Source of the DNA: Bacillales bacterium
GTDB lineage: Bacteria > Bacillota > Bacilli > Paenibacillales > CANHCR01
DNA: 64,000 bases
Direction: 5' to 3'
Assembly: GCA_947459205.1 (NCBI GenBank)
Contig: CANHCR010000009.1
Location: forward strand, 798 to 64,797
Position 1 is the stretch's first letter. Each line of letters begins with the position of its first letter. This document shows positions 32,442 through 63,133 of the stretch, in pieces. The position numbers were made by a program, and so were the translations under genes. A model generated the notes under the pieces. That model was not told the DNA's origin. It was given only the letters and a program-made list of their open reading frames with translations, and did not search any database.

Positions 32442-32595
32442 ATAGAATAATATCCTTGTCGGCATACTCGAGTCTTATTGGATCGGAGTGTGATTCAACA
32501 GTGGCACTCATCCTATGTCCTGAATGTGGAAAATCGATATCAGATTGACCTTCCCCCTCAAAACTGATCCACTTCAAAAGTTAGTTTATGAACGC

Positions 32596-32785
32596 GGTGA
32601 AACGGTTGTTTCTGATCTCATTCAGAGCGTCAAAATTACTATGGATGATATTTTTCATTTTCGTAGTAGCTGATTTGTAGCGTTAAGTGATTTTACCATG
32701 AGTATAACCATGTGGTGTGATGGTTGAGAATTCACCACATGGTTTTTCTTTTTTGGCAGGAAAATCATCACCTATGTGGAAATTG
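32596..32785 (+). promoter_or_regulatory. leader-like module, copy 1 (diverged homologue of 51389-51579)
   Basis: Aligns by eye with 51389-51579 over its full length: gaaacggttgtttctgat, tcaaaattac, ttttcgtagtagctgatt, catgagtataaccatgtgg, catggtttttc-ttttttggcaggaaaa. Contains a 9-codon mini-ORF (32698..32727, MSITMWCDG) and a terminator. Confidence 0.7.
32706..32754 (+). terminator. intrinsic terminator inside leader module copy 1
   Basis: Perfect 12-bp stem aaccatgtggtg (32706-32717) / caccacatggtt (32733-32744) followed by tttctttttt. Confidence 0.75.
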
Positions 32786-32804: not shown

Positions 32805-33000
32805 TGTCAATCACCCGTTTTCCATTGCGAATCCGAATCGATATTTTCGTTGATGAACCGAATTCAGTTGCTCTTGGTTGTACGTTTTCAGTAAATGGGG
32901 ATTAAGTTTTAATTTCGCTTGCTATCTGCGACACTTCAAGGCGATGAGATGTTTTACAATTTGCTGATACGTTAATATGAGATTTCGTAAAACTCGATGA
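32805..33000 (+). repeat. about 195-bp direct repeat, copy A (near-identical to 61294-61490)
   Basis: Base-by-base comparison shows one 1-nt indel and four substitutions. It ends at the RBS GAAGGAG of a 17-codon mini-ORF (33014..33067). Confidence 0.9.
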
Positions 33001-33130
33001 AGGAGTGATTCTCATGAAAGACTTACCGAAGGTTTTGCAAAAGCAATTTTTATTTAAAAATGAAACATGAGCCGCATTAGATAGAGGAAAAAGTTATGTA
33101 AGTCAATCACCCGAAAAAGTATCAGAAGCG

Positions 33131-34528: not shown

Positions 34529-34637
34529 TTACATAATTGAGGATTTTAAATGAAATTATTGAATTATAACGATGCTGGTAAATTCTGTACGCATCAGGAA
34601 AATACTTTATCTTTCAATTCAAGGTGGTCTGATATCT

Positions 34638-38197: not shown

Positions 38198-38616
38198 TGT
38201 CTGATTTTTTGGATTCGATGTTTCATCAAAGCACGAGTAATGTATTCGGTGGCGAAAATATGTATAGTCAGAATGGAAGTCTAATAGGAAGTACGCAACC
38301 GAATGTATTTGGCGGTGAAAATTTATACGATGCCAATCATCAAATGATAGGGCACACAACGGATAATGTGTTTGGTGGTGAAAACATGTTCGACAACAGT
38401 CATCAGTTGGTTGGAAGCACCCAACCAGGTGTGATGGGGACAAATGTTTTTGACGGTCATCACCAGCAGATAGGACACGTTCAGTATGATGCTACAGGTG
38501 GAAGTTTCCATGATTTGCACGGACAACAAATGAGTTGGCAAAACAACATGTTTGGTGGCGTCACCATGGACCCGCTACAAAATACTGCAAGTTTGAGTTT
38601 TCCAAATTTGATTTAA
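38197..38616 (+). CDS. small protein built from 21-aa NVFGGEN-type repeats
   Basis: 139 aa. Repeats: NVFGGENMYSQNGSLIGSTQP / NVFGGENLYDANHQMIGHTTD / NVFGGENMFDNSHQLVGSTQP / GVMGTNVFDGHHQQIGHVQYD, plus degenerate copies. TAATG overlap with dynamin 2. Confidence 0.75.
   Translation: MSDFLDSMFHQSTSNVFGGENMYSQNGSLIGSTQPNVFGGENLYDANHQMIGHTTDNVFGGENMFDNSHQLVGSTQPGVMGTNVFDGHHQQIGHVQYDATGGSFHDLHGQQMSWQNNMFGGVTMDPLQNTASLSFPNLI
38239..38490 (+). repeat. 63-nt in-frame tandem repeat (4 clear copies) within 38197..38616
   Basis: Copies at 38239-38301, 38302-38364, 38365-38427 and 38428-38490, read from the DNA and translation. Confidence 0.8.
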
Positions 38617-38632
38617 AACAGGTGGTGAAGAG

Positions 38633-41600
38633 ATGTCGAATATCGGAAAACAATTAGTTGAAAAAGTTCTAAAAGGTAATCCGCTTCAAAATGAAACATT
38701 TCATTTTTTGAAAGATTCTCAAATATTTTGTCAAGTGAACAATTTTCAAGAGGAGCATTCTGGATATTTCTTTATTTCGAATCAGAGACTCGGATATGTA
38801 CTGAACGACGGAGAATGTTTTTACTATTTCCCTTATTCAACAGTATATCGATATGAATCTCAATATACTGATGAAACCGAGCAGTATGTATATATATCTA
38901 TTTTGACAATTCACGATAATCAATGGAAGTGGACACGTTTTCACGTACTTGTAGATGATAAGGTTTTTTCGAGTATTCAGTTTGTACTCGACTACAAGTA
39001 TTTTTATCCTGCAGAGACATCTAAAGGGGACATTAAGAAAATAGCAAGTTTGATTAATGAATCAAGATTCCAAGACGCGATCGATGTACTCAATGAGTTA
39101 GGGCAAAACGATCCGCTATGTGGAATCTACCATGCATTGCGATTTCAAGTCAACTCAATCCAAGGAAAAAGTGAATTCGCACAGTTTAATTTGATACAAA
39201 TGTTTGATACTCTGTCTATCTTGGATCCGGAACCGTTGATTTATGCCATTGACTCTCTTGAGTGGGATAGTCGTATCATTCAATGGATGAATCAATATCA
39301 AGAAAACACACTGGAATTTAGAATAAAAGAATATATGATGGCAAAGTCAAGAAAGAACCCAGTCGAGATTTTTCATGCGATGAACCAGATGTTTGCTCAA
39401 CTGGAAGGTGAATATTCTGATTTCGGCGACATTTTATCATTAAAGTCATCATTATTGATCAACTACTTCGTCGGATGGAGTCATCTATTAGATGAGAACA
39501 TGGTAAAGCGTACTCATCAACTCATAGTGGATACGGAAAAAAAATATATTCAATCGAATGATTTTGCTCATCTATCAGATGCTGAAGCGAACATGGTTGT
39601 CCGTAGAGGAGCTACGCTTAACAGTTATCCTCAATCAGGGTTGTTCGAATGTGTGCGAACCATGTATTCTACAATAAATGGATACCCTCAAATAAGTGAG
39701 ATGTTTAATCATCATCAGTTTGTCTCACTAGCGAACCATTCATTTGATCTTGTGTCTCTCTATGATGTTGACCAGAGTGACACATGTTCTTTCCTTTACA
39801 ATGAGTTGCCGGCGAAAGAAAAAAGCAGACTTATCAACAATATTTATTGCTTATTTGCGCTTTTGCGAACGGAGGGAATAACGGAAAAAACCAAGCAAGT
39901 CTTTAACTCCATGCGTACAAAAGAGGGTATCGACATCAATATTGTTTTGTCGAAACCACAGTTGATTTTGGAAACTAGTATCTACTTTTTTTCCTGCATT
40001 GAATATTTCATCTTAACGTCTCAGAAAAAACTCGCTAATGAATATATTCTTCACTATCGATTTAAATACGGTGAGGCACTCGGTTCGAACATTCATCATA
40101 TATTAAAATTTGGGAAAGATATTTTAGATGTTTATGAGGCTTGGGCCAACAGTGACATTCCATTATTAATGTCCGCCAAGAATTTTGAAGTTTTTCTTGA
40201 GATTGATTGGCTACCATCGCTATACATAAAATATATACAACCAATGATAGAGAAGCACTTAAAGCGACTCAATGAGAACCCTCAACAGTCCATGCATGTA
40301 GTGCGAAATAGTATATTAGAAATCACATCAGGTTTTCAAAGTCTTGCACAATCCAATGAATTGTTGCAAGCGAAAAAAACGAAAATCAATGAATATGTGA
40401 ACCAAATAAAGAATCGGTTGCATTCCGACGAATTACGGATTGCGGTCATTGGGGAAACAAGTGCTGGAAAGACATCGTTGCTTAATCGGATGTTCGCTAC
40501 AGATTTATTTTATGTGACCCAAGAAGAGGCAACAGGAGTACCGACAGAAATACGTAACGGGATTGAAGCGGATGCACAAGTGTTGGACCGGCACGGAAAT
40601 GTTGTGATTAGGCTGAATGACACACAAAAATTCGAACTAAATCAAATGATTAAACGTACCGTTTCGAATTCAAATGACACTAGTCTAAATTCTCAATTAC
40701 ATGCATTTATCAAACAACACACAAAAGTAGACGAAGAGCGTTCTGTGAATGTAGACAGAGTGGTTGTTACTTTACCGATTCATGATCTGCCGAAAAATGT
40801 AGTGATTATTGATACCCCAGGTTTTAATGCAAATCAAAAGAGAAGTGACATTGCCTTAAATGTGATTAATCAAGCACACGTTTGTATATTTATCATCGAT
40901 GCACGAAACGCCTTGAAAAGTAAAGAGATGAACATTTTGAGAACGGTTCGTGAGCAAACGGGTAAATTGTTCTTGGTGTTGAATAAGATGGATTTAATCA
41001 TGGGTGATGATGAATTAGATTGTGATGACGGTGATTCTATTAAGCAGACGTTGGATCGAGTGAATGGTGATTTAGTCCGTTTTTTTGATAGTGATAAATT
41101 CCAAGTGTGTCCAGTCACTTGTATGCCTGCGGATAGAGTGCCTGCGGAAATTGTGGAGTATGTCAATAATTTATCTAGTTTAAAAACGAGAGTAATTGAA
41201 CATGCAACAACCAATGAGTTGGAACTGATTACCGATATGGCGGTGAAAGAATCTGTCGATTTGATAGAAGAAGTTCAAACAATTATGTATCAAACAAACA
41301 CTCAGAAGATAAACAAAACCTACGAATCGATCGACAAGTTACCCATGGATCCTCACATACACGCTAGTTTTTTATATGAACAGATAAACGATTGGTTGTT
41401 TTCACTCGAGCAAAGTTATAAATCGAAGATGTATGCTTTTAATCTTGCAAAAATACAAGATGCAATCGATACTTTTGCCGCATGGGTCTCCAATCAAACG
41501 AGTAGTGATCATTTGACGACTGGCGCACAAGCGAAAGCGGAAAGTATACTGACGATTGCTGTCAATGAAATTAACCGAAATCGTAAGCAAGAACTGAACA

Positions 41601-42184
41601 AGTTTTTAACGGCTCTATCCAAGAATATCGGTGATTATTTTGTCGAACTATACAAAGGATACGACATTAAAATTCAAGTGAATAAAACTGAGATTGATAA
41701 TTTGTTAGAAAAAATACAACGTGTCACATCAACCGAGGTTAGTGCTATTGGAAACATTGATGATGGTGTAAAAGATCAACTTTCCGGAGCGGCAATCGGT
41801 GCAGCAATTGGATTGATTTTGGGACCGCTTGGTGCGCTCGTCGGAGGATTCTTAGGAGGTTTGTTTTTTTCGAAATCAATTGAAGAAATTCAATATGAAG
41901 TGAACCAGGCCTTTTATAACGTGGCTAACGATACGCATATGAAATCTAATCAAATGGTAGAGAATGAAATAAGTCTTCAGAACGATCAAACCATTATGGC
42001 GAAAATCGATGAGGTTTGTGAATCGATTATGACGAAATACATTCAAGCAGTAGATCGTGTGCGTGGTTCATACCGTAACGAGATTAATGAATCTTTGGAA
42101 CGAATTATTCAAACTAAACATCATATCACCGATATTGCTAATAAGAATGTTCTCCTTGAAACTTGGCGCTCGTCGCGAAGGTAG
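38633..42184 (+). CDS. large dynamin-like GTPase 3 with about 560-aa N-terminal extension
   Basis: Central G1 GETSAGKTS, G3 IDTPGFNA, G4 LNKMD. C-proximal paddle LSGAAIGAAIGLILGPLGALVGGFLGGLFF. RBS AGGTGG. Confidence 0.85.
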   Translation: MSNIGKQLVEKVLKGNPLQNETFHFLKDSQIFCQVNNFQEEHSGYFFISNQRLGYVLNDGECFYYFPYSTVYRYESQYTDETEQYVYISILTIHDNQWKWTRFHVLVDDKVFSSIQFVLDYKYFYPAETSKGDIKKIASLINESRFQDAIDVLNELGQNDPLCGIYHALRFQVNSIQGKSEFAQFNLIQMFDTLSILDPEPLIYAIDSLEWDSRIIQWMNQYQENTLEFRIKEYMMAKSRKNPVEIFHAMNQMFAQLEGEYSDFGDILSLKSSLLINYFVGWSHLLDENMVKRTHQLIVDTEKKYIQSNDFAHLSDAEANMVVRRGATLNSYPQSGLFECVRTMYSTINGYPQISEMFNHHQFVSLANHSFDLVSLYDVDQSDTCSFLYNELPAKEKSRLINNIYCLFALLRTEGITEKTKQVFNSMRTKEGIDINIVLSKPQLILETSIYFFSCIEYFILTSQKKLANEYILHYRFKYGEALGSNIHHILKFGKDILDVYEAWANSDIPLLMSAKNFEVFLEIDWLPSLYIKYIQPMIEKHLKRLNENPQQSMHVVRNSILEITSGFQSLAQSNELLQAKKTKINEYVNQIKNRLHSDELRIAVIGETSAGKTSLLNRMFATDLFYVTQEEATGVPTEIRNGIEADAQVLDRHGNVVIRLNDTQKFELNQMIKRTVSNSNDTSLNSQLHAFIKQHTKVDEERSVNVDRVVVTLPIHDLPKNVVIIDTPGFNANQKRSDIALNVINQAHVCIFIIDARNALKSKEMNILRTVREQTGKLFLVLNKMDLIMGDDELDCDDGDSIKQTLDRVNGDLVRFFDSDKFQVCPVTCMPADRVPAEIVEYVNNLSSLKTRVIEHATTNELELITDMAVKESVDLIEEVQTIMYQTNTQKINKTYESIDKLPMDPHIHASFLYEQINDWLFSLEQSYKSKMYAFNLAKIQDAIDTFAAWVSNQTSSDHLTTGAQAKAESILTIAVNEINRNRKQELNKFLTALSKNIGDYFVELYKGYDIKIQVNKTEIDNLLEKIQRVTSTEVSAIGNIDDGVKDQLSGAAIGAAIGLILGPLGALVGGFLGGLFFSKSIEEIQYEVNQAFYNVANDTHMKSNQMVENEISLQNDQTIMAKIDEVCESIMTKYIQAVDRVRGSYRNEINESLERIIQTKHHITDIANKNVLLETWRSSRR

Positions 42185-49838: not shown

Positions 49839-50039
49839 AGAGATTTGGATTGACTGTTCTTGCGACCCGTTGAAACATCAAGAAAAAATGTGACGCATGT
49901 CATCAAATTGGAGAAGTGTATGTTAGGGCATTCAATTTTTTCTGGTTTTTACTTTTAAAAATAAGTAGTTTCAAATTAAAAGATTTATAAAAAATTGAGT
50001 GTGGAATTCCTTTGAGATTATGAATTTGGAGGAGATTAA

Positions 50040-50999
50040 TTGAAAATTAATACTGATTGGAAACTGAAAGTTTTGCTGACGTTCGGTATTATATTGACTG
50101 TGCTCATAATAGCGGTTCCACTTATTTTTTCAATAATTTCATACGACCCTTATAATACATTGAGGAACGCTGATGCACCTTCTTATTTGGATTATTTAAT
50201 GTTTGTTGGTTCGATAATTGCTGGTTTAGTGGGTCTATTAGGGGTGTTCTCTACGTTATATGTGAGTTACAAACTTTATAAAGTATCCGAAAAAGCTGTT
50301 GAAATTGCAGACCAGGCAACTAATATAGCAGACGACACTCGTAATGCTCAAGTATCGGACAATAAACTCAACTTAGTTAGAGAATATATAACGATGATTA
50401 GAGAACTCGAATCTACAGACAGTCAAATTACAGAAGCTCGTGCATTTCAAGATAAATTGAGTGGAATTATTAACCGTCGATACGAGCACATCTACAGGCA
50501 GGTCAATTCCTTTTTTAACCATGTCATTGATCAGGTTGAAAAGGGGAGTAAATTTCATCATTCAACGACTATTAGAACCAACAAATTTCCAGATGATTTG
50601 TTTGACACTTTTTTAAATAATTCCTTATTGGATAGAAATCAAATTCGACTAATAAATTATTTTTTTCAATTTGAATGGATAAATCCTGCAATACGAACTA
50701 ATCCAGTAATTGATATTGTGAGAATTTCTTCAGAGCACCACCAAATCGAATTTGTAATTAGTTTTTCTAACTTATCAGTTTCCTTCACAGAGAATGAAGT
50801 GAGAAAGGATGTTATTCAAATCAATGAATTTTATGAAAATGACATAATGAGAGATAAAATTGAATTTGTAATGGATTCAATTTCGAATAGAATAAAAAAC
50901 ATAGAGCGAATAAAAGAATTTTACGTAGAAAACTGCAAGGAGCTTCAGAAAATTACTGGTTATAAATTGATTGAATTTACACAAGATGAAAAGGCATAA
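50040..50999 (+). CDS. hypothetical membrane protein (2 N-terminal TM helices, cytoplasmic alpha/beta region)
   Basis: TTG start after GGAGGAG. 319 aa. No motif recognised. Confidence 0.6.
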   Translation: MKINTDWKLKVLLTFGIILTVLIIAVPLIFSIISYDPYNTLRNADAPSYLDYLMFVGSIIAGLVGLLGVFSTLYVSYKLYKVSEKAVEIADQATNIADDTRNAQVSDNKLNLVREYITMIRELESTDSQITEARAFQDKLSGIINRRYEHIYRQVNSFFNHVIDQVEKGSKFHHSTTIRTNKFPDDLFDTFLNNSLLDRNQIRLINYFFQFEWINPAIRTNPVIDIVRISSEHHQIEFVISFSNLSVSFTENEVRKDVIQINEFYENDIMRDKIEFVMDSISNRIKNIERIKEFYVENCKELQKITGYKLIEFTQDEKA

Positions 51000-51388
51000 A
51001 CACAAATGTATTTTATACAATCTCTGCGGAATGGGATTCTGCAAGCATTCAAAATTGTTAGGAAATCAAATTCATGGGAACATGAGATCATATCATTCGA
51101 TTGGAGAAGTGTATGTCAGGACATCAAAGATAGCAGCTTTATCGTCGGGATGTTGTCGAGCATGTCTTGAGAAGGGTGAAGAACCCTACAGCATCTGTTG
51201 GCTCGCTCAACTGAGTTGAGTAATCACTCGTTTTTTTGCCAGTGGGCATTGAGGGCATTTTGTATCAAATTCTCTAAACTGCTGATGTCCGACATCAAGT
51301 GATTTTAGGGGAATTCACGAGTGCATGAAATCAAGCATCCAATCAAGACGGTATGTTATTAATGGCACCAATTAAGGTGTATTAAATT

Positions 51389-51579
51389 GGAGAAACGGTT
51401 GTTTCTGATTATATACAGCGTGTCAAAATTACAATTGATGATATTATCCATTTTCGCAGTAGCTGATTCATAGTAAAAAATGGCATTATCATGAGTATAA
51501 CCATGTGGAAAGATTTTTGAAAATCTGCCGCATGGTTTTTCTTTTTTTGGCAGGAAAACCATCAAATATGTAGAATTTA
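51389..51579 (+). promoter_or_regulatory. leader-like module, copy 2, directly upstream of the 51619 operon
   Basis: Homologous to 32596-32785. Contains mini-ORF 51491..51520 (MSITMWKDF) overlapping the 5' arm of a terminator. It ends about 40 nt before the RBS GGAGGG of the 51619 gene. Confidence 0.7.
51499..51548 (+). terminator. intrinsic terminator/attenuator inside leader module copy 2
   Basis: Stem aaccatgtgg (51499-51508) / ccgcatggtt (51528-51537, one G-U), inner stem agatttt/aaaatct, then tttttcttttttt. The stem is conserved with copy 1 while the loops differ. Confidence 0.7.
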
Positions 51580-51618: not shown

Positions 51619-52653
51619 ATGTTAAATAAACTACTAGAAAACAAAGAATTAATCAATTATTTAGAAAGTGCAGCATGTCGATTGAAAGTAATCGAATTCG
51701 ACGAAAGTTTTAAGTCAATTTCAGAGGCGGAATTAAATCATTTATTGCAGTTTTTACACCGTTTTTGTCACGAAAGACAGTGGGTGTATGCGATTCGAGA
51801 TGCATCAAAGACGCCGGAGAATGCGATTTCACACTATGTCGATCGTTTAATCGAGCAGTCGAAATCTAGGGATGCAGAAGACAAAATTTTTAAACGATTG
51901 GTTGTTATTACGAATATACCTGACGAGCCTTCAGAAGCACTTGTATCGGCTTTAGATCGTCTATTGGAATCTAGTGATGATATGTATTTGATCGTTTCTT
52001 TCGGCAGATCGATCTATAAGCAAGTCTATAAGATGAGTAAATTCAGGATGTTCCTAGATAAATTGCTTTTGATTTCGAATGCAACAAAAAATACGGAAAT
52101 CAGGAGTGTTGCGTCATCAAACATATTGATAACAAATGTACCGACAACAAACGTGGCATTTCCGCGATATCGTCCGTCAGATGATTTGAAAGCATTTCTG
52201 TACGCAAATTTCCCGCTGATTCATAATGCGAATTTTGACTTGTCTGAAATCAATCATGAGTCAACGATAGTGAAAGCAAAATTAACGGATCACCTTAATC
52301 ATCATCACACAGCGTTCGGTGGCAGCATTGCTCTTAGTTTGTTATTGTCGGCGATGTGCCATTTGGTCAAGATTGTCGATACGTTCCCTGAAGAGTTGTC
52401 ATTTGTTATCGGCAAACAGGAAGTCACATATTACGAAAAAATAAACGAAGACTTTGTTGTTAGAAGTCTTGAGGTTTCCGACCAGGAAAAACGCGATTAT
52501 TTTGCACGCGTAATGGAGCGCGGAAGAGGTGCCATTGTGATTAAATCGCAAATTCGCGACGAAGCCACTGATAAACTGCTGGCAGAGTTTATTGGGAAGT
52601 TCGTATGTATCAAGTGTATGGATGTTGAACCTTCCGACTATGCAATAAGCTAA
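51619..52653 (+). CDS. hypothetical protein, C-terminal hotdog-fold (PaaI/4HBT thioesterase-like) region
   Basis: 344 aa, RBS GGAGGG. C-terminal KAKLTDHLNHHHTAFGGSIALSLLLSAMCH..GAIVIKSQIRDEATDKLLAEFIGKFVCI resembles the N..G.(H/F)GG..a.L.D hotdog pattern. The N-terminal half is unknown. Confidence 0.65.
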   Translation: MLNKLLENKELINYLESAACRLKVIEFDESFKSISEAELNHLLQFLHRFCHERQWVYAIRDASKTPENAISHYVDRLIEQSKSRDAEDKIFKRLVVITNIPDEPSEALVSALDRLLESSDDMYLIVSFGRSIYKQVYKMSKFRMFLDKLLLISNATKNTEIRSVASSNILITNVPTTNVAFPRYRPSDDLKAFLYANFPLIHNANFDLSEINHESTIVKAKLTDHLNHHHTAFGGSIALSLLLSAMCHLVKIVDTFPEELSFVIGKQEVTYYEKINEDFVVRSLEVSDQEKRDYFARVMERGRGAIVIKSQIRDEATDKLLAEFIGKFVCIKCMDVEPSDYAIS

Positions 52654-52676
52654 ATTGAATTGAGGAGTGGTAGAAG

Positions 52677-53294
52677 TTGCGCATATGTGATGTACAAGCG
52701 TTAGTTTTGAATGGGACGTTTATTGTTTGTTGGGATGAGACATTGCTGCGAAACAGTCCGCCACGAGGCAGGCTTACTATTGATGCGAATGCCCTTGTGT
52801 TGCGAGCATACATTGACAATGAGTTTGGTTTAAGTTTTAAGTTTGCGTGTTATGCGATGCTCCAAGATGAACAGGTGACATTGTTTGCCGACGACAGCGG
52901 ACTGGGTTCGTTTACCATTCGTATAGACGAATCGACCGACTATTCTTTTATTTGGCTGCCACATGGTGTTTATAATGAGGATACTTTGAATCTCGATCGG
53001 ATGGTTCGCGAATGTTATCAAGTGAATGATTTTGTTCAATATAGTAGAACGATGGACGTTTTGCATCCGTTGCGAGACAGGATTCAGCCGGATGTGATTC
53101 GTGTTCTACTATCTGCTAAAGATGGTGAGATGGAAGGGGTATGGTGTCGAATTCATGACTACATCAATGAACGAATGGTTGTTAAATTGTTGCATGACAC
53201 GAAGAGAGATTTTGGTCTACGGACAAATGCCCTGTTAAATGTGGATATCGTACAACATGAGGGTCAAGCATATGTTGTTTGGGAACAGGAGTGA
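52677..53294 (+). CDS. hypothetical protein (decayed paralogous fragments lie at 32805-33000 and 61294-61490)
   Basis: 205 aa, TTG start after GAGGAGTGG. The segment RLTIDANALVLRAYIDNEFGLSFKFACY parallels RIRID..NSVALGLYVFSKWGLSFNFACY encoded by the repeat copies. Confidence 0.65.
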   Translation: MRICDVQALVLNGTFIVCWDETLLRNSPPRGRLTIDANALVLRAYIDNEFGLSFKFACYAMLQDEQVTLFADDSGLGSFTIRIDESTDYSFIWLPHGVYNEDTLNLDRMVRECYQVNDFVQYSRTMDVLHPLRDRIQPDVIRVLLSAKDGEMEGVWCRIHDYINERMVVKLLHDTKRDFGLRTNALLNVDIVQHEGQAYVVWEQE

Positions 53295-53398
53295 GCAATA
53301 CAATTTCGGATTTCTGCAGTAGCTGCGATGCAGTAGAGTAATAGGCTAATTATTTTATTTTGGTCAAGAGGAACATGTGACGCGAGAGGAGTGTTCTG

Positions 53399-54673
53399 AT
53401 GAAGTTACAGGAGCAGTATCAAAAGTGGTTGAATGAATTTACTGAGGCGCACGGCAGACCGAGCCCGTATGAATCGGTTGCGACATTTGAATCATTTGAG
53501 GCGCGCTTGAAATTTGCTGATTTGTTGCGCATGTTTGACGAAAGTGGTGAGCAGGATTTTGCGAAAATCGAACAAATTTACTTGTCAATTATTCACGATG
53601 CGGTTGCAAGACAATGTGCAGGTGTAACTTTTACACATGCAGAGATGCATTTGTTGGCGCGCTTGTATATCAAATATGGGCAGTTGTACTGGGAGTGCCG
53701 CAAAGATGAGTCGTTTTTGCTCGATATGTTGGATCGCGCGACTACGTTCATCAAACTCGATAAACGCTTGAATGGGCTTGAAGCGACGGTCGAATATTTT
53801 CGTTTGAAGTTGTTGGCGGATCAGGGACAGCAATTGAGAGCGCTACAGGAAGCAAAGTCGCATCTGACGCTCGTCGGGAAAAAGAGGAAGTCGTTGTGGA
53901 ATCGGGAAAAATACATGTTTCATTTGTTTCTATTTGAATTGTATAGCGACAATCAATGTTATGAGGATGCGGAAGAACATTTGCAGGAAGCGTGCCTTGC
54001 TCTGAACTTGTTGAAAAAAGCGAATGTTGATGACTTTATGCCAGTAGAGCTCATGGGCGTCGTGTCACGCTACATTTTTGAAGTAGAAGATCAAGGGATG
54101 ATGTTTGTACCTGGGGAGGATGGTCCGGAGCGCGACCGCAAAGCAAACTATGCAGCGAACGTGAAGATTCAGGTGGAGAATGCGGCTTACTATGGGGAAG
54201 CGCATTTTGATGAGAAGTACCAGCGTGACGAGCAGATTTTGCTATTGAAAGGCTTTTTGCCGAAGAAGGTTGAAGGCAATGAACTAATTGAAGAAGAGTG
54301 TGCGACGATTGTCGCGGGTGCGCTGAAGGCAGGCGCATTGATTGAGACGGAGTTCGGACTCGAAGTCGTGAATCCGATTGCCGGAAATGTGATGGATATC
54401 GCGGCGTTGATTAGCGGACAAGCAGGCCTAAAGCGACGAGAATATTACAAAATGTGGCGCGATAAGGTGGATGGAGCGAGTCTGTACGAGGACCATTATT
54501 ATGTACGAGGTGAAGGTGAGGATGACCACCTCGATGATGGCAATGATTATGAAGGCATGTCGGCTAAGCAGAAAGAATTATTGGAATATAAATGGAGTAA
54601 ACAGTTTAATCGATCGCGGCGCTTAAACCGAAATATTGCGAAGCGATTGCGCGATTTGTTGGAGTGGAATTGA
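53399..54673 (+). CDS. hypothetical alpha-helical protein
   Basis: 424 aa, RBS GAGAGGAG. Predicted helical/TPR-like N-terminal half. No catalytic motif recognised. Confidence 0.65.
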   Translation: MKLQEQYQKWLNEFTEAHGRPSPYESVATFESFEARLKFADLLRMFDESGEQDFAKIEQIYLSIIHDAVARQCAGVTFTHAEMHLLARLYIKYGQLYWECRKDESFLLDMLDRATTFIKLDKRLNGLEATVEYFRLKLLADQGQQLRALQEAKSHLTLVGKKRKSLWNREKYMFHLFLFELYSDNQCYEDAEEHLQEACLALNLLKKANVDDFMPVELMGVVSRYIFEVEDQGMMFVPGEDGPERDRKANYAANVKIQVENAAYYGEAHFDEKYQRDEQILLLKGFLPKKVEGNELIEEECATIVAGALKAGALIETEFGLEVVNPIAGNVMDIAALISGQAGLKRREYYKMWRDKVDGASLYEDHYYVRGEGEDDHLDDGNDYEGMSAKQKELLEYKWSKQFNRSRRLNRNIAKRLRDLLEWN

Positions 54674-54817
54674 GGTTTCTTTAGAATCAACACGATAAAG
54701 CTAGTGCCTCGTGCCGGTGCGCTTCTACTCATCAAGCGAATGTTTTTCTTTTTTCTAAAATAAAGGAATTAACGCTGTTTTTATTGAATTTATATAACGA
54801 CTAATGGGGGTGAGCAT

Positions 54818-55672
54818 TTGTTGATTGATCAGCTACGCCAAAGTTTTCAAACCAATGGAGCAACTCACCCGCAAACGATGTGCTTCGTTACTCAGTACAT
54901 CTCGCGCATCATGAATGTCGCGCCGAAACAAAAAGACTTTCGTAACCATAATAAATTTCACGACGCGCAATTGATTGCAGATGACCGTCAATTATGTCTG
55001 ATGGTGATTGAAGCCTATATTTGCGATCCGAAATACATTCGAATTTATGAAAATCTCGACCAATATGACGACGAACAGTGGATTCACATGAAACCAAGTG
55101 AGCAGGATCCACACGGAACATTTTATGTGGAGGAGTTACGTGGATGGATTTGGGACTTTGGTCCAGATGATCCGCATGATACAGAAGACATTTTATCCGA
55201 TAATGAAGATTTGGAGGAGTGGATGGACTTTGACACCCTCGTCCACCAACGCATTTCTTACGTTTTGCTGAAACTTACGTTTCATGCGTTTATGGGAAGC
55301 GCAGAACAACCTGCGTTTTTCGAAATGTTGTGGCGAATTATTGCGCGCGCGTTTCAAAAACAAACCGTCTTTGGAGAAGGTACGTGGTCTCTCGAGGGCA
55401 TTATGGAGGAACTTGTTCATTACAAAGCGTTCACATTTATGAGCAATGTGTTATTGCATTTTCGCACAAATAAACTTTTCCCCTACAACTCTTGGATGCG
55501 TTTTGCTGGCATGTTGATACGTGGACAATTTGAAGCATTATCCAAGATGGGCTATCACTCCAAAATTAGTGCGAATGTATTGATCAGAAATGAACTCGAG
55601 CGTGTGGCAAACGAAGAAAACTGGCCGGCGTTGAAGAAGAAATATTTGCTAGCACGAGTTGGTCTGCTGTAG
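54818..55672 (+). CDS. hypothetical protein
   Basis: 284 aa, TTG start after GGGGGTGAG. No motif recognised. Confidence 0.6.
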   Translation: MLIDQLRQSFQTNGATHPQTMCFVTQYISRIMNVAPKQKDFRNHNKFHDAQLIADDRQLCLMVIEAYICDPKYIRIYENLDQYDDEQWIHMKPSEQDPHGTFYVEELRGWIWDFGPDDPHDTEDILSDNEDLEEWMDFDTLVHQRISYVLLKLTFHAFMGSAEQPAFFEMLWRIIARAFQKQTVFGEGTWSLEGIMEELVHYKAFTFMSNVLLHFRTNKLFPYNSWMRFAGMLIRGQFEALSKMGYHSKISANVLIRNELERVANEENWPALKKKYLLARVGLL

Positions 55673-55701
55673 CTGCAATCACGAAAAGGAGTCACACGTC
55701 A

Positions 55702-58137
55702 ATGATGATTCGCATCGATCTAGAGCGAGCTCGCACGGCACGCACGATTGTCGCGCGTTTGCAGCTAGCCATGAAAGAGCACTGGCAAGTCGCCTTTCCT
55801 TTATATGAAGATGCGGAACGGGCACGCCTGCTTTGTTTGCAAAACGGCGGCGGAAACCGTAATTTCACTCACCCGCGTTTGCTCCAGATGTGGCGAGATC
55901 TTCAAAAGGAATCGCAAATGAACGTCACGATTACGTTTTTCGACCTCAATCGGCATTATGCAAAGTTGGTGGAGGCCGCGTTTCGTGCTGATCTAGCAGA
56001 TTTTTTTGCCACGTGTACAGCAGATGAGCGAACTGCGCTTCCTGTTCTGAATGTGTTCAATTACATTTGTCCTAAACATTGGCAGTTGCAAATCGATGGC
56101 GTCCAGTGGGGCTCCGTTTATGCTCGGACCGAGGTGCCTGAGCTGCCGGTGGATGCTTTATTTGCGTGCAATCGTGAAGCGACGATGGAACCGGTGTGGG
56201 CAGATCAGGCGATTGCATGGTTGGAGTATCGTCTGCATCACTGCAACCAGTTGTCTGAAGTTTCGAAAGTCATCAAGTCTACGTTTAGCAAAATCAAGAA
56301 GCGCCTCTATTTGACGTATCAATTGACGGAACTTTATGAGGCGTATCGCGTCATCCTTGACGCTTTGCCAAAGCTTGCACGCGCCGAACGATTGCTGAAG
56401 ATGTATCGCCTCGAATTCGCACAGCTACTCGCCATCCATTTTGAGGAAGAGTGTGCGCAACCGTTAGCAAATTTCAATCAATCCATCGAGACGAATATTT
56501 TAGACATTCAAGTTCTGACTGCGCTACATGAAGAAATTGCGTTTGATGGCTTTGCTTGGCTTGGACGTTGGCGACAAGAAACGCGCACTTCTTCTGTCAT
56601 CCACCAACGAAAATGCAAGTGGTTCGATCAATGCAACGAATTGTTTCAAGCACATGATGGTCAATACAAGCCTTGGATGCGCGAAATCTTCTGTAAATTA
56701 GCGATTGAGTTCCATGCGCGTATGCAACATCGACAAATGGAGCAACTTTTCGAATGGAACAAATCGGTGCGCTATTGGAACGTAATGGACCGCTTAATTG
56801 TGTTTTATGACTGGCATGAACTCGTGACGAGAGATACAAGTTATCTATTCGATGTGGCGGAACGAATGACTTTCATCGGTCGTTTCGAACGTGTCGTGCG
56901 CAACTATTTCCGCCATTTGCGAGAGGATGATATAAGTGAGCAAGATATGGTAGAGCGGTTCCAAAATCAATATATCGTGCCGCGACAGTTCATGCGTTAT
57001 GATACTTGGATTCGCGAAGTCGATAAGCTAATTGGCAACGAGCGTTGGATGAGTCGCTTTTCCGAAGCAACGCAATTGGATTTGCGTTTTGCGGTGCTGA
57101 AGTCACACACTCTATTGTCGTTTTTTCAAACACCACTCGACGAACGTTTTGCAGAATTACAGCAACAAATTGAGCAACGTTACGGAAGAATGGATCGACG
57201 TTGGATTGAATTGATGACAGATATTTATCCGAAGATCGCTGATCGGCTGAAAAGAGCCGATCAATACGGTCTCTTAATATTGAATTCGATTGAAGAGGAT
57301 AATCACGACAATTTGGGTGATCGACTACAAGTTATCGCAACGTTGTTGGAGCGAAAAACTATTTTGCTGAATCAGTCAACAATCCTCAGTTTGGCTCACG
57401 AATATGTAGAAATTGTGGCATTAACGAAAAAGAAAGATTTGACTGGATTATGCAAATTAATCTGGTCGCGCGGCGCCCGAACATTGTACTTTTATTTAAT
57501 GCAACGGCAACTCGAAACATATGCAGCAATGGATAACAAAAATGTTTTGGATGCTATGCGTTTTTATGGAAACTGCATCTTATTAAATGAGGATATTTTC
57601 AGAACCGCAACTCTTTTTACAAAAGCTTCAGATTATTCTTTTGCTTGTTTCCGCATGGTAGAGCAAATTGTAATCCAAAAAGCTACATTTGATATGAGTC
57701 ACTTATCTTTTTTAGCAAAGTTGTTGGTGATGTGTTCACAGTCGAACGATTCACGGACTCCGTCCATTATGCAAAACTTATATGAGTATGTGTTGAACGG
57801 CATCGAAGAGGTACAAAAACAAGATAAATCTTTATCAGAGAAATGGAGAAATCGTTTTTTTAAAATACTCCGCAATAAAGATTGGCACATTTGGGTGGAA
57901 AAACATGGGGGTGAGCAAATGTGGTGGGATTGGTTGGAGTTTTCTTGGTCAGAAACGAAAAATTGGTATTTGAAGACCTTGAAAGATGTGATGATCGTCT
58001 CACGGTTGAACACGCTCAAAAAATTCGAAACACGTTTTTCCTTGGACGCAGGTCGACTTGCCGCTGTCGCCGAGATGCGAGCAAGATGTTATGATCTGCT
58101 CGGTCCGCATCATCCGAAGGTGAAAGGTGGGATGTGA
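55702..58137 (+). CDS. large hypothetical alpha-helical protein (811 aa)
   Basis: RBS AAAGGAG. Trp/Arg-rich and helical. Its size and position upstream of MoxR/vWA recall the large uncharacterised partners (YehM/DUF4132-like) of other MoxR-vWA loci, but no homology could be verified. Confidence 0.7.
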   Translation: MMIRIDLERARTARTIVARLQLAMKEHWQVAFPLYEDAERARLLCLQNGGGNRNFTHPRLLQMWRDLQKESQMNVTITFFDLNRHYAKLVEAAFRADLADFFATCTADERTALPVLNVFNYICPKHWQLQIDGVQWGSVYARTEVPELPVDALFACNREATMEPVWADQAIAWLEYRLHHCNQLSEVSKVIKSTFSKIKKRLYLTYQLTELYEAYRVILDALPKLARAERLLKMYRLEFAQLLAIHFEEECAQPLANFNQSIETNILDIQVLTALHEEIAFDGFAWLGRWRQETRTSSVIHQRKCKWFDQCNELFQAHDGQYKPWMREIFCKLAIEFHARMQHRQMEQLFEWNKSVRYWNVMDRLIVFYDWHELVTRDTSYLFDVAERMTFIGRFERVVRNYFRHLREDDISEQDMVERFQNQYIVPRQFMRYDTWIREVDKLIGNERWMSRFSEATQLDLRFAVLKSHTLLSFFQTPLDERFAELQQQIEQRYGRMDRRWIELMTDIYPKIADRLKRADQYGLLILNSIEEDNHDNLGDRLQVIATLLERKTILLNQSTILSLAHEYVEIVALTKKKDLTGLCKLIWSRGARTLYFYLMQRQLETYAAMDNKNVLDAMRFYGNCILLNEDIFRTATLFTKASDYSFACFRMVEQIVIQKATFDMSHLSFLAKLLVMCSQSNDSRTPSIMQNLYEYVLNGIEEVQKQDKSLSEKWRNRFFKILRNKDWHIWVEKHGGEQMWWDWLEFSWSETKNWYLKTLKDVMIVSRLNTLKKFETRFSLDAGRLAAVAEMRARCYDLLGPHHPKVKGGM

Positions 58138-58744
58138 TTTGAATCGTCAAACGAAAAAGAAATATCGCCTGCGCAATTGGGATGACGTACAAGAGTTTGA
58201 AAAATATGCGCGACTCATCACCGAACTGATGATTTCCTGTTTGCCTCGCGAACAGGTGGAACGTTTGATGCTGGCGCGTCTAAATGAGCGAGATTTTTCG
58301 ACATTGCAATGTTGGTTCAATCACGATAAAGATTTTACGGCGACCGTCGCGGCGTTGCAAACGCAAGATTTCTCGCGCTTTGTGGAACTTACTTTGTTTA
58401 ACGTATTCAGTGAACTAGAGCGGGCACTTGTCGAGTATTTAGATTCGCTCGATTTCACGCCGGAAGTAGAGGTTCAGAACGCGGAAATTGTGGTGCGCAA
58501 TCCGCTTCCGTTTTTGCAATATACGACGTGGCCGATGGAAGATTACTCGTATCTAGTCGTAAAGACAAGCATCGACAAACAGAAGTTTTGGGCAGAGAAA
58601 TGGAGCCGTTCGGAGCAAAAGATTTTACAAAAGGTATATGCGTACAAGAAAAACCGCAGCGGGCGCTATGTGATTGCAAAAGACGAGTTCGCCAAGGCGT
58701 TGATTGAAATGAACGAGTTGTTAGGCAACCCGACTGATCGTTAA
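58127..58744 (+). CDS. hypothetical protein
   Basis: 205 aa. GTG 58127 or TTG 58139 start, overlapping or abutting the stop of the 811-aa gene (translational coupling). Confidence 0.6.
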   Translation: MGCDLNRQTKKKYRLRNWDDVQEFEKYARLITELMISCLPREQVERLMLARLNERDFSTLQCWFNHDKDFTATVAALQTQDFSRFVELTLFNVFSELERALVEYLDSLDFTPEVEVQNAEIVVRNPLPFLQYTTWPMEDYSYLVVKTSIDKQKFWAEKWSRSEQKILQKVYAYKKNRSGRYVIAKDEFAKALIEMNELLGNPTDR

Positions 58745-58756
58745 GGAGGTACCACC

Positions 58757-59827
58757 ATGCATCATGTGACACCAGGAAAATTGTTGGAAATTTTGCTACC
58801 GCTGTATACGAACGCTGCGAAAATGAGTGAAGTGCCGAGCATCATGCTGTGGGGCGAGCCAGGCATCGGCAAGTCGCAGACGATTCGTAAACTGAAAGAT
58901 GAGTTGCATCGTTTGACGGGCAAGGAGGGATTGTTGCGCGACGTGCGCCTCTTGCTCTACAATCCTGTCGATTTGAAAGGCATTCCCGTGCCTGACGAGG
59001 AGCGAGTGCGCTCGAAGTGGTTGCGACCGACGCTGTTTGATTTCGCGGAGGGTGATGAGTTTCTGCATGTGCTCATGCTCGATGAAATATCGGCAGCTCC
59101 GCCATCCGTGCAGGCAGCAGCATATCAGCTGATTTTGGATCGGCAAATCGGCGATCACAAACTGCCAGACAATGTCGTCGTTATCGCAGCGGGCAACCGC
59201 ATCGGTGATGGCGGTGTTGCGTTTCGTATGCCGACGCCCCTTCGCAATCGCATGACCCATTTTAAAATTGAGCAGGATTTAGACGATTGGCTTTCCTACG
59301 CCGAACGCGATCAGCTGCACGAAGCGGTGCGTGGCTTTATTCGTTTCGCAGGTATTAAGATGCTGCTTGATTTCCGCGCCGACAGCGACGAGGAAGCGTT
59401 TCCGACACCGCGCAGCTGGGAGTTCGTCTCGCGCTATTTGAAGTTGTACGGCGATTCACAACTCGCTGAACCTGCGATTGTTGGAACGGTAGGCAAAGGA
59501 GCAGCAGCTTCCTTTATTGAGTATACGAAAGTGTTCGAGGAATTGCCGGATCTCGAGGCGATTATGGCGGGTCAGCAGGTCGAATTGAAATCGACACGCT
59601 TTGACGTGATTTGTGCGCTGTCCATTCGTATCGCTGGCGTGATTCCGACGATGACGAGTGAGCAAGCCCATCATCTCGTCGATTTTTTACTTAAGTCGGC
59701 GATAAAAATCGAACATATTTTCATGTTGATCAGTGATTTGTGGCGCATATCGAGAACACACGAGATGATACGCGGCATGAGCAGTTTGGTGCAATGGCAA
59801 ATGTCACACAAACGATTTTTTAAGTAG
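58757..59827 (+). CDS. MoxR-like AAA+ ATPase (AAA_5)
   Basis: Walker A GEPGIGKSQ, Walker B LMLDEISAA, sensor VIAAGNR and PTPLRNRM. RBS AAGGAGG. Confidence 0.9.
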   Translation: MHHVTPGKLLEILLPLYTNAAKMSEVPSIMLWGEPGIGKSQTIRKLKDELHRLTGKEGLLRDVRLLLYNPVDLKGIPVPDEERVRSKWLRPTLFDFAEGDEFLHVLMLDEISAAPPSVQAAAYQLILDRQIGDHKLPDNVVVIAAGNRIGDGGVAFRMPTPLRNRMTHFKIEQDLDDWLSYAERDQLHEAVRGFIRFAGIKMLLDFRADSDEEAFPTPRSWEFVSRYLKLYGDSQLAEPAIVGTVGKGAAASFIEYTKVFEELPDLEAIMAGQQVELKSTRFDVICALSIRIAGVIPTMTSEQAHHLVDFLLKSAIKIEHIFMLISDLWRISRTHEMIRGMSSLVQWQMSHKRFFK

Positions 59828-59830
59828 GCG

Positions 59831-61081
59831 ATGCGGATGAACGAAGAACAAGAAGCATTAAAGAAATTGGAAAACTCATTGACCGTACTGATTGTCAAGT
59901 TTCCGTTCTTAGGCAGGTTGGCATTGCACTTGCAATTGCGTGCGCGGCCCGATGTGAAGACCGCGGCGACAGATGGGATTCATTATTTCTATGCGCCGCA
60001 GTTTTTTGCCCGACTGAAGCAAACCGAGGTTAATTTTGTCACGATCCATGAAGTGATGCATGTCGTATTCAAACATATTGAACGTTGCCGTGATCGGGAT
60101 TTGGATTTTGTCACGTACAATTTTGCCTCGGATTATGTGATTAATGCCGCCATCCGTGAACTCGATCCGACGCAAGAGATTTTTAAAATGCCGAAACAAG
60201 GCTTGTACAAAAAGAAATATGAGGGTCTGTATACGGAAGAAGTGTACGCGCTTTTGCAGAACAGCGACTCGGGGCAAGAGTTGATTGATCGTTACAAAAA
60301 GCAAAAAGAAGCGCAAGAACGGGGTGTAGGAGAGGGTACGCATCCGATTAAGGGACACGATGTGTGGCGCGAATTGTACGATCGCTTGTCTCCTTCGGAT
60401 ATTGAGCAGTATGAAAGGGAATGGCAGCGTAGAATCGATAGCGAAATCCGACATTTTCCGGAGCGATTTGCGGGTAGCAGTGCGGGGTCGATGTTTCGCC
60501 GGTTTGTGCTTGAGCGTGCGGTGCCGAAAAAAAACTGGCGCCGGTTGCTGCACGAGTTCTTGGCATTTGAAAGCAACGATTTCGGCTTCAATCCGCCGAA
60601 TCCCAATATGATGCACTTATCGCAATTTGGCTACGATGTGATCATGCCGGATTGGAGCGAGCAAGAGCCTGTTTTGCGCAACATCGTGTTCGCCGTCGAT
60701 ACGTCGGGGTCGGTTGATGGCGCACAGTTTCAACTTGTACACAATGAGATCATTGCCTGCCTGCAAATGTTTGGCGGGCGCGTGGATGGCAAGTTGATTT
60801 ACTGTGACGCTCATATTCCTGATGATGGTGTGTACGACATTGTGAACGTGAAAAACGCGCTGCCGGTCGGCGGTGGTGGCACGAGTTTCATCCCCGTATT
60901 CGAGTGGATCGCAGCTAATTGGCAAAATCAGTGTGCGGGCCTCGTGTATTTGACCGATGGGTATGGTGAATTTCCCGATTTTGCTCCGCCGTATCCCGTA
61001 CTTTGGGTGCTGTTGCGAAAGAAGCATGAATGTGAGGTCGAAGTGCCGTTCGGCAGTCGAACCGAGTTAATTATGGATTGA
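59831..61081 (+). CDS. vWA domain protein with N-terminal HExxH metallopeptidase-like domain (DUF2201-type)
   Basis: IHEVMHVVFKH (HExxH) in the N-terminal half. MIDAS VFAVDTSGSVDG and a YLTDGYG-type strand in the C-terminal half. Starts 3 nt after the MoxR stop. Confidence 0.85.
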   Translation: MRMNEEQEALKKLENSLTVLIVKFPFLGRLALHLQLRARPDVKTAATDGIHYFYAPQFFARLKQTEVNFVTIHEVMHVVFKHIERCRDRDLDFVTYNFASDYVINAAIRELDPTQEIFKMPKQGLYKKKYEGLYTEEVYALLQNSDSGQELIDRYKKQKEAQERGVGEGTHPIKGHDVWRELYDRLSPSDIEQYEREWQRRIDSEIRHFPERFAGSSAGSMFRRFVLERAVPKKNWRRLLHEFLAFESNDFGFNPPNPNMMHLSQFGYDVIMPDWSEQEPVLRNIVFAVDTSGSVDGAQFQLVHNEIIACLQMFGGRVDGKLIYCDAHIPDDGVYDIVNVKNALPVGGGGTSFIPVFEWIAANWQNQCAGLVYLTDGYGEFPDFAPPYPVLWVLLRKKHECEVEVPFGSRTELIMD

Positions 61082-61293
61082 CACGATTCTCTTGAATAAC
61101 TTCATAATTGCTGATTTCAAAAGATTAAAAATACAACCTTCTAGGGTGAAGTCGGATTTTTCAATTTTCGAAAATTTTAGCGTCCTTTGTGCCCGTTGCT
61201 CGTTGTACGATGAAACGTTGTCGAATGCTATGCTTTACCTTTGATTCAAATAATCTTTAGCCGATTTCTACGGATTGTATACGATTACAGCAA

Positions 61294-61490
61294 TGTCAAT
61301 CACCCGTTTTCCATTGCGAATCCGAATCGATATTTTCGTTGATGAACCGAATTCAGTTGCTCTTGGGTTATACGTTTTCAGTAAATGGGGATTAAGTTTT
61401 AATTTCGCTTGCTATCTGCGACACTTCAAGGCGATGAGATGTTTTACAATTTGCTGATACGTTAATATGAGATTTCGTCAAACTTGACGA
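61294..61490 (+). repeat. about 195-bp direct repeat, copy B (near-identical to 32805-33000)
   Basis: See copy A. Carries an open 54-codon frame (MSITRFPLRIRID..GLSFNFACY..) that is frameshifted in copy A. It ends at the start region of the 61484 gene. Confidence 0.9.
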
Positions 61491-63133
61491 TGGGGGTGGA
61501 GGTAATAAAAAACATTTCTATGCAAGACTTCAGCGTTGATGATGTTCCGAATCTAATTCGCTCCGCTGTCGATGAGATTAATTCTACACATAACAGTTTT
61601 GGGCCATACAACCGAGAATCTCTTGTCAAAGTGAAAGGTTGGCTTGAAACCGCATGGCAACTGATGGTTGACAAGGAGTTCTGTGAGACTCATCTGCAAA
61701 TCGCTTGGCCGTTAACGGTTGTATATATTAGGCTGAATTTGCCTCATAGCATTGATGAACTCATACAATACTTGAAAAAACATGATCGTGAAGGTTTGTC
61801 CGAATCTCTGTTAAGCTTGATGAAAACCTCGCAAGCTCTATCAAATTACACTTCAATCTATAAAACATATCATAACGGCTCAGTGGTGTATGAGTTGTCA
61901 AATCCAAAAGCTGTGGCACAACTTATTGCATTGTGTAGTGAACATCGGTATTGGGTGTTAGATATGAGAATTAAGGAACAACCTGTTTTACATGGTCACT
62001 CAATCGTCAAAGGTTTAACTGAGGCAGATGGAGCGATTTTGCTTGAATTAATGACGAATCGACGAGGAGCATCTTCGCAACTCATCATAGAGAGGTTGAA
62101 CGAAGTGCTTGATTCGGTTGTTGAAGCGGAACAGTTTGATCTCCGGATGTCACGACTACGCACACAATTAAGAGATCAATTTTCCGAACTAATCCCTCGA
62201 GATACCTTGTTTATCAATGAGTCTGAACGATATGAATGGAACGTGCCTGGTACGTTCTATGTAGTTGAAACAATTGATTATAAATCTATCAGTACCTCGG
62301 ACTTTTTGAATATCGGGCTAACACCGTATCATGTTTGCGACTTGTCAGATATGACGGAAATGAGTGATTTTGAAGCGTTTGAAAAATTTTGTTTGGCGGT
62401 CGCAGTGGAATACGGTTTATTTGTTGAAAAAGAACCTTACTCGCTTGATCAAGTATTACAACATCTAACGGAGTCGGCAGATGATAAAAAAATTCTTTCA
62501 CTATCTGGGGAGTTAATTAAAGGATTAGTAGTCTGTCAAATCCATCTGAAACATTCTGGTGAGATTGATAAAGTATGGGGTGAAATTGAAGCGATTTTGA
62601 AAAAAAACAAATTGTACAATTTCTATGAAAGGTATAATTATCTTTATCGTGCGTTAGATGAAAGTAGGTCACCGCATCTTTTGTATATAAATGGTGAGCA
62701 ATTTCGTGATGTGACCCTAGATCGTGTATATCGCACAATTGAGGATGCTCATGATCGTGAGGATATGTTAGTCTTGGACTATCGTGTTGCCATTCGACCC
62801 CGAATCCATGCTGCGGGAATAACTTGGGAAGTAACGCCGCTTCAAGGGAAATTATTGTTCGCGCTTATGACAACAACTCGCCCTGTGACAAAGGAGCAAA
62901 TTATCGCTTACGTAGGTGAATCCTTTTCATTCGATCGAATGCTCCAAAATTTAAGACAAAGATTTGAAGACAAGTATCCTAACCATTACAACACTAAGTT
63001 TCTTCGCAGTCCAGATAAAAAAGGATATCGCATTGGACTGGATTGTGAATTTGCTGTCATTGATAGAAAAACATACGAACCTTACACTGGGATCATTAAA
63101 CCATCACCTATAATTCAATTCACTAACATCTAG
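61484..63133 (+). CDS. putative transcriptional regulator with two OmpR/PhoB-type winged-helix (Trans_reg_C-like) domains and no receiver domain
   Basis: Two matching segments: LTEADGAILLELMTNRRGASSQLIIERL..FDLRMSRLRTQLRDQF and VTPLQGKLLFALMTTTRPVTKEQIIAYV..DRMLQNLRQRFEDKY. Start ambiguous (TTG 61484, ATG 61490 or ATG 61520). Confidence 0.65.
   Translation: MTMGVEVIKNISMQDFSVDDVPNLIRSAVDEINSTHNSFGPYNRESLVKVKGWLETAWQLMVDKEFCETHLQIAWPLTVVYIRLNLPHSIDELIQYLKKHDREGLSESLLSLMKTSQALSNYTSIYKTYHNGSVVYELSNPKAVAQLIALCSEHRYWVLDMRIKEQPVLHGHSIVKGLTEADGAILLELMTNRRGASSQLIIERLNEVLDSVVEAEQFDLRMSRLRTQLRDQFSELIPRDTLFINESERYEWNVPGTFYVVETIDYKSISTSDFLNIGLTPYHVCDLSDMTEMSDFEAFEKFCLAVAVEYGLFVEKEPYSLDQVLQHLTESADDKKILSLSGELIKGLVVCQIHLKHSGEIDKVWGEIEAILKKNKLYNFYERYNYLYRALDESRSPHLLYINGEQFRDVTLDRVYRTIEDAHDREDMLVLDYRVAIRPRIHAAGITWEVTPLQGKLLFALMTTTRPVTKEQIIAYVGESFSFDRMLQNLRQRFEDKYPNHYNTKFLRSPDKKGYRIGLDCEFAVIDRKTYEPYTGIIKPSPIIQFTNI

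Follow-up and report, generated by a model that had tools for sequence, protein, structure and literature searches.

Two near-identical copies of a direct repeat of about 200 nt, hereafter R, frame a block of genes within a mosaic defence island. We consider it probable, at roughly three chances in four, that R is a relic without function, left by a second gene from the family to which gene 2, an intact gene located between the two copies, belongs. Coordinates are given on the window, i.e. the whole 64,000-nt stretch of Bacillales DNA analysed here, in which R, the conserved segment L, gene 1 and gene 2 all lie on the + strand.

The repeat and its homology to gene 2

Copy B of the repeat, R(B) (61294..61493, 200 nt), lies after the last gene of an operon encoding MoxR and DUF2201 proteins (stop at 61081) and before a gene encoding a 549-aa protein, confirming the repeat that a first-pass annotation of the window had reported there. 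Its partner, R(A) (32805..33003, 199 nt), is found in direct orientation 28,489 bp away. The two copies are 97–98% identical over 200 nt (97% for R(B) aligned to R(A)): the first 73 nt show no difference, an extra G in R(B) (61367) and a single G/A mismatch (32880/61370) follow, about 110 nt are identical past this variable site, and the terminal ~15 nt fray. No homology was detected past either border, whether between the copies or against the module formed by L, gene 1 and gene 2, and R is present in two copies only in the window extended by the 9 kb beyond it (~73 kb). The intact gene 2 belongs to an 8-gene MoxR/DUF2201 operon located between the copies, where McrBC and three genes for dynamin-like GTPases are also found.

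All the sequence data come from metagenome assemblies, and the same layout of R was recovered from two ENA assemblies as well as from Logan contigs of other runs. One Logan contig (L003) stops 30 nt into R(B); in R(A), near the 3′ end, another (L008) has its first base 30 nt ahead of the first A/B difference. Such breaks of short-k contigs at the borders of R are those expected of a true two-copy repeat. All the recovered contigs represent the same strain, with 100% identity over 11–21 kb, the single exception being L001 (ERZ28613002), which over 20.6 kb differs from the window solely at the variable site of R(B). There, the copy B of L001 (18618–18816 of that contig) carries the frameshift allele of copy A, which results either from gene conversion involving the two R copies or from a mix-up in assembly.

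Gene 2 (52677..53294, 205 aa) is intact and belongs to an uncharacterised family; the C-terminal half of these proteins resembles DUF2314, listed by Zhang et al. as the immunity family Imm34 (PMC3482391). Its structure model reached a pLDDT of 92, and a fold search of this model against the PDB returned no meaningful match (TM ≤0.22). In a collection of 5.8 billion proteins, neither gene 2 nor the preceding gene 1 (51619..52653, 344 aa, with a YiiD_C thioesterase-like C-terminal domain) had close homologues other than themselves, and no match to the gene 2 protein was found on plasmids. An exhaustive HMMER search nonetheless recovered 75 remote relatives of gene 2 (gene 2 excluded), sharing 19–31% identity and mostly about 205–215 aa long. 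The alignment of this family reveals an N-terminal motif, YGYIDxEAGxSFExLC, with three invariant residues (Y45, D47 and G51), and a C-terminal half marked by ExxW…LLNEP that weakly matches DUF2314; some of the relatives bear an additional SseB N-terminal domain. Their contigs are mostly about 1 kb long, and the only relative with a long context (L010) has neither gene-1 nor MoxR neighbours. No related genome and no intact paralogous module were found in the protein collection, the genomes, the metagenome matches listed, the viral contigs, the plasmids or the phages.

The resemblance of R to the 205-aa gene 2 protein, initially noticed by eye, exceeds chance in formal alignments against shuffled sequences. 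At the protein level, the frame of copy B aligned to gene 2 with a Smith–Waterman score (BLOSUM62) of 68, against 24.2 ± 4.0 for shuffles (maximum 52; 0/2000 reaching the score), its residues 7–41 (counted from ATG 61293) pairing with gene-2 residues 28–59, and gene 2 was the top match to R among the window's 136 long reading frames (runner-up 41). At the DNA level, a permissive alignment of 61339–61458 with 52780–52891 scored 30.5, against 12.6 ± 1.9 for shuffles (maximum 22.5; 0/1000). A tblastx comparison of R with gene 2 gave E = 5e-4 for a search space comprising the whole window, and BLASTN alone was marginal (42 nt, 76% identity, E ~0.1). Within R, a likeness to gene 2 is detectable over a central core of ~120 nt only, and neither the 45 nt preceding it nor the ~35 nt following it resemble gene 2. 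As delimited by the DNA alignment and the codon-position pattern, this core spans 61339..61458 in R(B); the alignment between copies places it at 32850..32968 in R(A), for which tblastx to 52809–52853 gave E = 0.023. The part of gene 2 that is matched (52780..52891, codons ~35–72) corresponds to the strands of a predicted β-hairpin (39–47, 51–63 and 66–70).

The pattern of differences within this core reveals a coding past. Nucleotide identity between R and gene 2 is ~64% in an in-frame block of 72 nt, and past the ...FACY codons the frame is broken relative to gene 2 by gaps of 2, 4 and 2 nt. Over the nine codons GLSF[N/K]FACY, all five base differences (5/5) fall at third positions and 4/5 are synonymous, indicating that the ancestor of R was once coding and under protein-level selection, rather than R and gene 2 sharing a DNA motif. 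Moreover, the R peptide (…GLYVFSKWGLSFNFACY) falls exactly on the N-terminal motif of the family, among whose 76 representatives gene 2 is its best match (68 vs 49 for the next). Two of the invariant residues, Y and G, are kept, and D47 is replaced by Phe (LYVFSKWG vs AYIDNEFG). When gene 2 was left out of the family profile, R aligned at profile positions 41–70 with a weak score of 6 bits (per-sequence E 3e-4), and in a six-frame scan with the family profile the R segments are the top non-gene matches at E 1.5, a family-profile support that is weak when taken alone. The degenerate DNA pattern for GLSF[KN]FACY had 19 matches in 596 Gb of genomes, none in family members and all attributable to chance, and at least 120 in metagenomes, where no family member or window-like locus was seen among the matches listed; it was absent from the viral contigs. 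At the sequence level, these comparisons support the descent of R from a protein-coding gene related to gene 2. The first-pass annotation had described decayed 5′ fragments of a gene-2 paralogue: the relic of a paralogue stands, but as the match begins near codon 28–35, R is an internal, N-proximal fragment rather than a true 5′ end.

Segment L and the history of the repeat

A second conserved segment, L, is found as L1 (32584..32793) ahead of R(A) and as L2 (51377..51587) upstream of gene 1. Its parts are the terminal ~27 codons of an ORF frame (ending in …ETVVSDLIQSVKITMDDIFHFRSS and a stop codon), a hairpin (32706–32744 in L1, 51499–51537 in L2) followed by a T-run, and TTGGCA…TGGAAA in L1 or the promoter-like TTGGCA-18-TAGAAT in L2 (51547–51576). 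L1 and L2 are 79% identical, and the distance from the end of L1 to R(A) is 11 nt, compared with 31 nt from the end of L2 to gene 1, so the reported presence of a leader homologue directly 5′ of copy A holds. Read in one frame (32584–32673 and 51377–51466), both encode ETVVSD[L/Y]IQ[S/R]VKIT[M/I]DDI[F/I]HFRSS followed by a stop. Differences between them are distributed 5/2/11 by codon position, and 6/12 changed codons are synonymous, a bias that is only modestly significant; the L2 frame meets a TAA at its third codon, where the L homology begins. The hairpin and T-run form an intrinsic terminator in both copies (ΔG −24.4 and −22.6 kcal/mol; z −4.1 and −3.7), with conserved stems and loops that differ between L1 and L2. 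What had been called a leader is indeed a conserved segment present in both places, but it reads as the 3′ tail of an upstream gene with its terminator and the next promoter-like site, as we infer from its composition. A hydrophobic frame of 28–30 aa in L was also considered as a small toxin or leader peptide, and was rejected because its differences fall mostly at second codon positions and make 15/16 changed codons non-synonymous.

The order and orientation of L1 and R are the same as those of L2, gene 1 and gene 2. This colinearity of an L-like segment with a gene-2 relic favours a decayed second module, in line with the second copy of the module postulated by the first-pass annotation. Gene 1 has no counterpart beside L1 and R(A); its deletion from there and an exchange of downstream cassettes at the module, both suggested by the same annotation, are conjectural. 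From this one genome, we infer the order of events, the mode of R duplication and any recombination at R as follows. An older duplication or acquisition would have put in the island a second unit, composed of an upstream-gene 3′ end, a terminator, a promoter and, further on, a gene-2-like gene. This second gene would have evolved for a time under purifying selection, before being truncated and eroded until ~120 recognisable nt (codons ~35–72) remained. Much later, the relic-bearing piece of ~200 nt may have been doubled by copying, or older copies may have been homogenised by gene conversion; the high identity between R copies, compared with ~64% to gene 2, indicates that this happened long after R had become a relic. 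The values of 79% for L and ~64% for R and gene 2 add a caveat, as a single simultaneous duplication would need either a constrained L or a fast-evolving R or gene 2. If R is such a relic, the first genes of the MoxR/DUF2201 operon once had a second relative in the island.

Long identical runs are substrates for RecA-dependent recombination, and R(A) and R(B) share perfect runs of 73 nt and about 110 nt. Direct repeats of 200 nt imply that a 28.5-kb deletion or circle may arise: a crossover between the copies would loop out the 28.5-kb block, joining L1 and R to the genes of the 549-aa protein and the sigma factor. Alternatively, the repeats could be the scar left by the entry of this block via a single crossover at R. 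None of the other contigs recovered showed an “empty-site” arrangement in which the 549-aa gene would follow L1–R directly; they all share the layout of the window. By extension, L and R could together act as portable junctions for the insertion, excision or swap of blocks of defence genes by homologous recombination, which we regard as distinctly unlikely. The junction between L1 and R(A) would then be “empty”, and L2 followed by the MoxR/DUF2201 operon and R(B) would be “filled”, since the operon lies exactly between L and R in the same order. If portable junctions did exist, recombination between R copies would also be a reversible way of losing 28.5 kb of defence genes, and would connect the 549-aa/sigma-factor genes to the promoter of L1.

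Coding state and alternative readings of R

Today copy A of R is non-coding, and the same very probably holds for copy B. The frameshift reported in copy A is real (32878, relative to B), and so is the open frame reported in copy B, which counts 60 codons from TTG 61275 or 54 from ATG 61293 and stops at 61457. That this frame would encode a genuine small protein of 54–60 aa, kept from the N-terminal part of the paralogue, could be argued from its openness and from the family residues Y, G and LSFxFxC that it retains. It is nonetheless extremely improbable: no Shine–Dalgarno sequence was seen by inspection before ATG 61293, copy A is frameshifted, copy B is frameshifted too in one assembly (L001), and the protein of the R frame had no match in the collection of 5.8 billion proteins. 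In addition, R matches only the strands listed above, approximately one β-hairpin of a 205-aa two-part fold, and such a fragment could not fold alone. It lacks a start, the full C-terminal ExxW/LLNEP half and the invariant Asp, and neither copy is flanked by sequence similar to the remainder of gene 2. With a frame of 54 codons and flanks unlike gene 2, R is the relic of a family member rather than a member. In genome annotation, the 60-codon frame at 61275–61457 should therefore not count as a gene.

Having lost its coding role, R might have been co-opted as a cis-regulatory segment (promoter, operator or 5′ UTR) whose near-identity is kept by selection. It would then provide a common control to the operon starting at 33131 and to the 549-aa gene with its sigma factor, with the 549-aa protein or the sigma-like factor encoded in the island as possible factors acting on R. 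In this sense, a translation start follows closely after each of the two like-oriented copies (AAGGAG-8-ATG after R(A); GGAGG and the 549-aa ORF after R(B)), they are 97–98% identical vs 79% for the L copies, and a sigma70_r2 protein is encoded two genes downstream. Furthermore, the 12-mer GTCAATCACCCG found at the left end of R (32806–32817 and 61295–61306) recurs just 5′ of ATG 33131, in a third exact copy (33102..33113, + strand) placed 99 nt past R(A) and 18 nt before this ATG. These three matches compare with 0.21 expected at ≤1 mismatch, and 0/100 shuffles reach three. We nevertheless judge this regulatory role unlikely, as no sigma-70-like site was found on the + strand of either copy by a scan that is blind to alternative-sigma promoters, and R folds no better than shuffled sequences (z = +1.16 on the + strand and +0.57 on the − strand). 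Likewise, R has no Rfam match at the gathering score, only chance-level ones appearing at E ≤1, the start after R(A) opens a 17-codon ORF only, the gene at 33131 lying 128 nt further, and a recent copy or gene conversion explains the high identity equally well. The near-identity of the copies and their sites just 5′ of gene starts could reflect selection for function, and R by itself probably does nothing. The strong Shine–Dalgarno sequence and ATG right after R(A) occupy 33000–33017, and the short ORF that they open (MKDLPKVLQKQFLFKNET, 33000–33070; 21 aa from a GTG start) could be a gene-start relic or a small upstream ORF. Its first codons are loosely like the MQDF… of the 549-aa protein, a likeness that is not significant.

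A mobile origin, in which the R copies would either delimit a 28.5-kb integrated or mobile element in the manner of attL and attR or form the termini of a small non-autonomous repeat element, is very unlikely. It would account for direct repeats around a 28.5-kb block and for the lower, mosaic GC content of the island (34–49% vs ~55% in the first 8 kb). The third copy of GTCAATCACCCG also makes 32806–33101 a segment flanked by a 12-nt direct repeat, which may represent a scar of microhomology or serve as a binding site. However, Pfam revealed no integrase, recombinase, transposase or resolvase domain in the bracketed proteins that were scanned (33131–61081, McrBC being covered from precomputed hits only), no tRNA gene was found, and the low-GC island runs well past both repeats. 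The copies have no terminal inverted repeats in common, they are the only two in ~73 kb, and their homology to an internal gene indicates a gene relic, not an att core. The DNA of L1 and R had no match to plasmids and phages, and the exact cores of R and L and the L peptide pattern were absent from the viral contigs. As for the possibility that the likeness of R to gene 2 is due to chance or low complexity, or that the repeat is an assembly artefact, it finds some ground in the BLASTN result (E≈0.1 alone), in the 6 bits of the family HMM and in data drawn entirely from metagenome assemblies. It is scarcely credible and already largely refuted, since shuffles never reach the observed protein or DNA scores, the match is in frame on the key motif of the family with third-position-only differences, and independent assemblies agree, with contigs breaking exactly at the borders of the repeat.

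Island context and comparison with known systems

The GC content is ~52–57% in the first ~8 kb of the window and 34–49% from about 8–10 kb onward, a drop by which most of the window is recognised as a mosaic island gained through horizontal transfer. Its low-GC defence-type genes include a type III restriction-modification system, an EVE-HNH protein and an SF1 helicase with an MTES_1575 nuclease domain, in addition to the three dynamin-like GTPases, McrBC and the MoxR AAA+/DUF2201 operon. The eight-gene operon (51619–61081) encodes a YiiD_C-like protein, the Imm34-like gene 2, a MoxR-type AAA+ ATPase, a DUF2201 metallopeptidase/VWA protein and four proteins without family match (424, 284, 811 and 205 aa). 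Searching its proteins against PADLOC and NCBIfam returned nothing but the YiiD_C domain, and this operon may be an undescribed system. The dynamin-like GTPase genes (635, 573 and 1183 aa) occupy 34572–42184, and a “beta-flower”-like protein of 139 aa, below the Pfam cut-off, is encoded between the second and the third.

Other repeats were observed in the window. A 36-nt repeat with GGAGAAGTGTATG occurs at 49896–49931 and 51089–51124 (83% identity, E 6e-5), in the neighbouring intergenic regions that flank the gene at 50040–50999. A 115-nt direct repeat (10638–10752 and 10925–11039; 77% identical, 287 nt apart) surrounds a short tandem run of CAATCCTTGTTG, within or near an ORF on the − strand (10769–11842).

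Several known systems share part of this organisation. In polymorphic toxin–immunity loci such as Rhs and CDI, orphan or displaced cassettes with homology to the main gene permit recombinational switching. R is likewise a gene fragment placed ahead of different downstream genes, and the C-terminal half of gene 2 resembles DUF2314 (Imm34). Unlike these cassettes, however, R is too diverged from gene 2 (~64%) for homologous exchange, so that only recombination between the R copies is plausible, and no toxin gene, array of alternative cassettes or population evidence of switching was found. As with att sites, two direct repeats surround a block of accessory genes, but no recombinase or tRNA target was found, the repeats are 200 nt long and gene-derived, and the island continues on both sides. 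R also differs from MITE and IS-like elements, having no shared terminal inverted repeats and two copies in the window and the 9 kb beyond it. Compared with the DUF2314/Imm34-like proteins themselves, R aligns correctly on the N-terminal motif of the family, but without a start, the C-terminal half and the invariant Asp it is a relic without product. The closest likeness is with the gene relics of acquired defence islands: R is a short remnant of a gene once under selection, since truncated and frameshifted, it lies amid mosaic low-GC defence genes with an intact relative nearby, and it is explicable without a function. It departs from them by its two near-identical direct copies 28.5 kb apart and its link to the duplicated L, which together call for at least two separate rearrangement events. 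We thus read R as a familiar case, namely a gene relic that was recently duplicated inside a mosaic defence island, produced by ordinary erosion and rearrangement and not constituting a new functional element.
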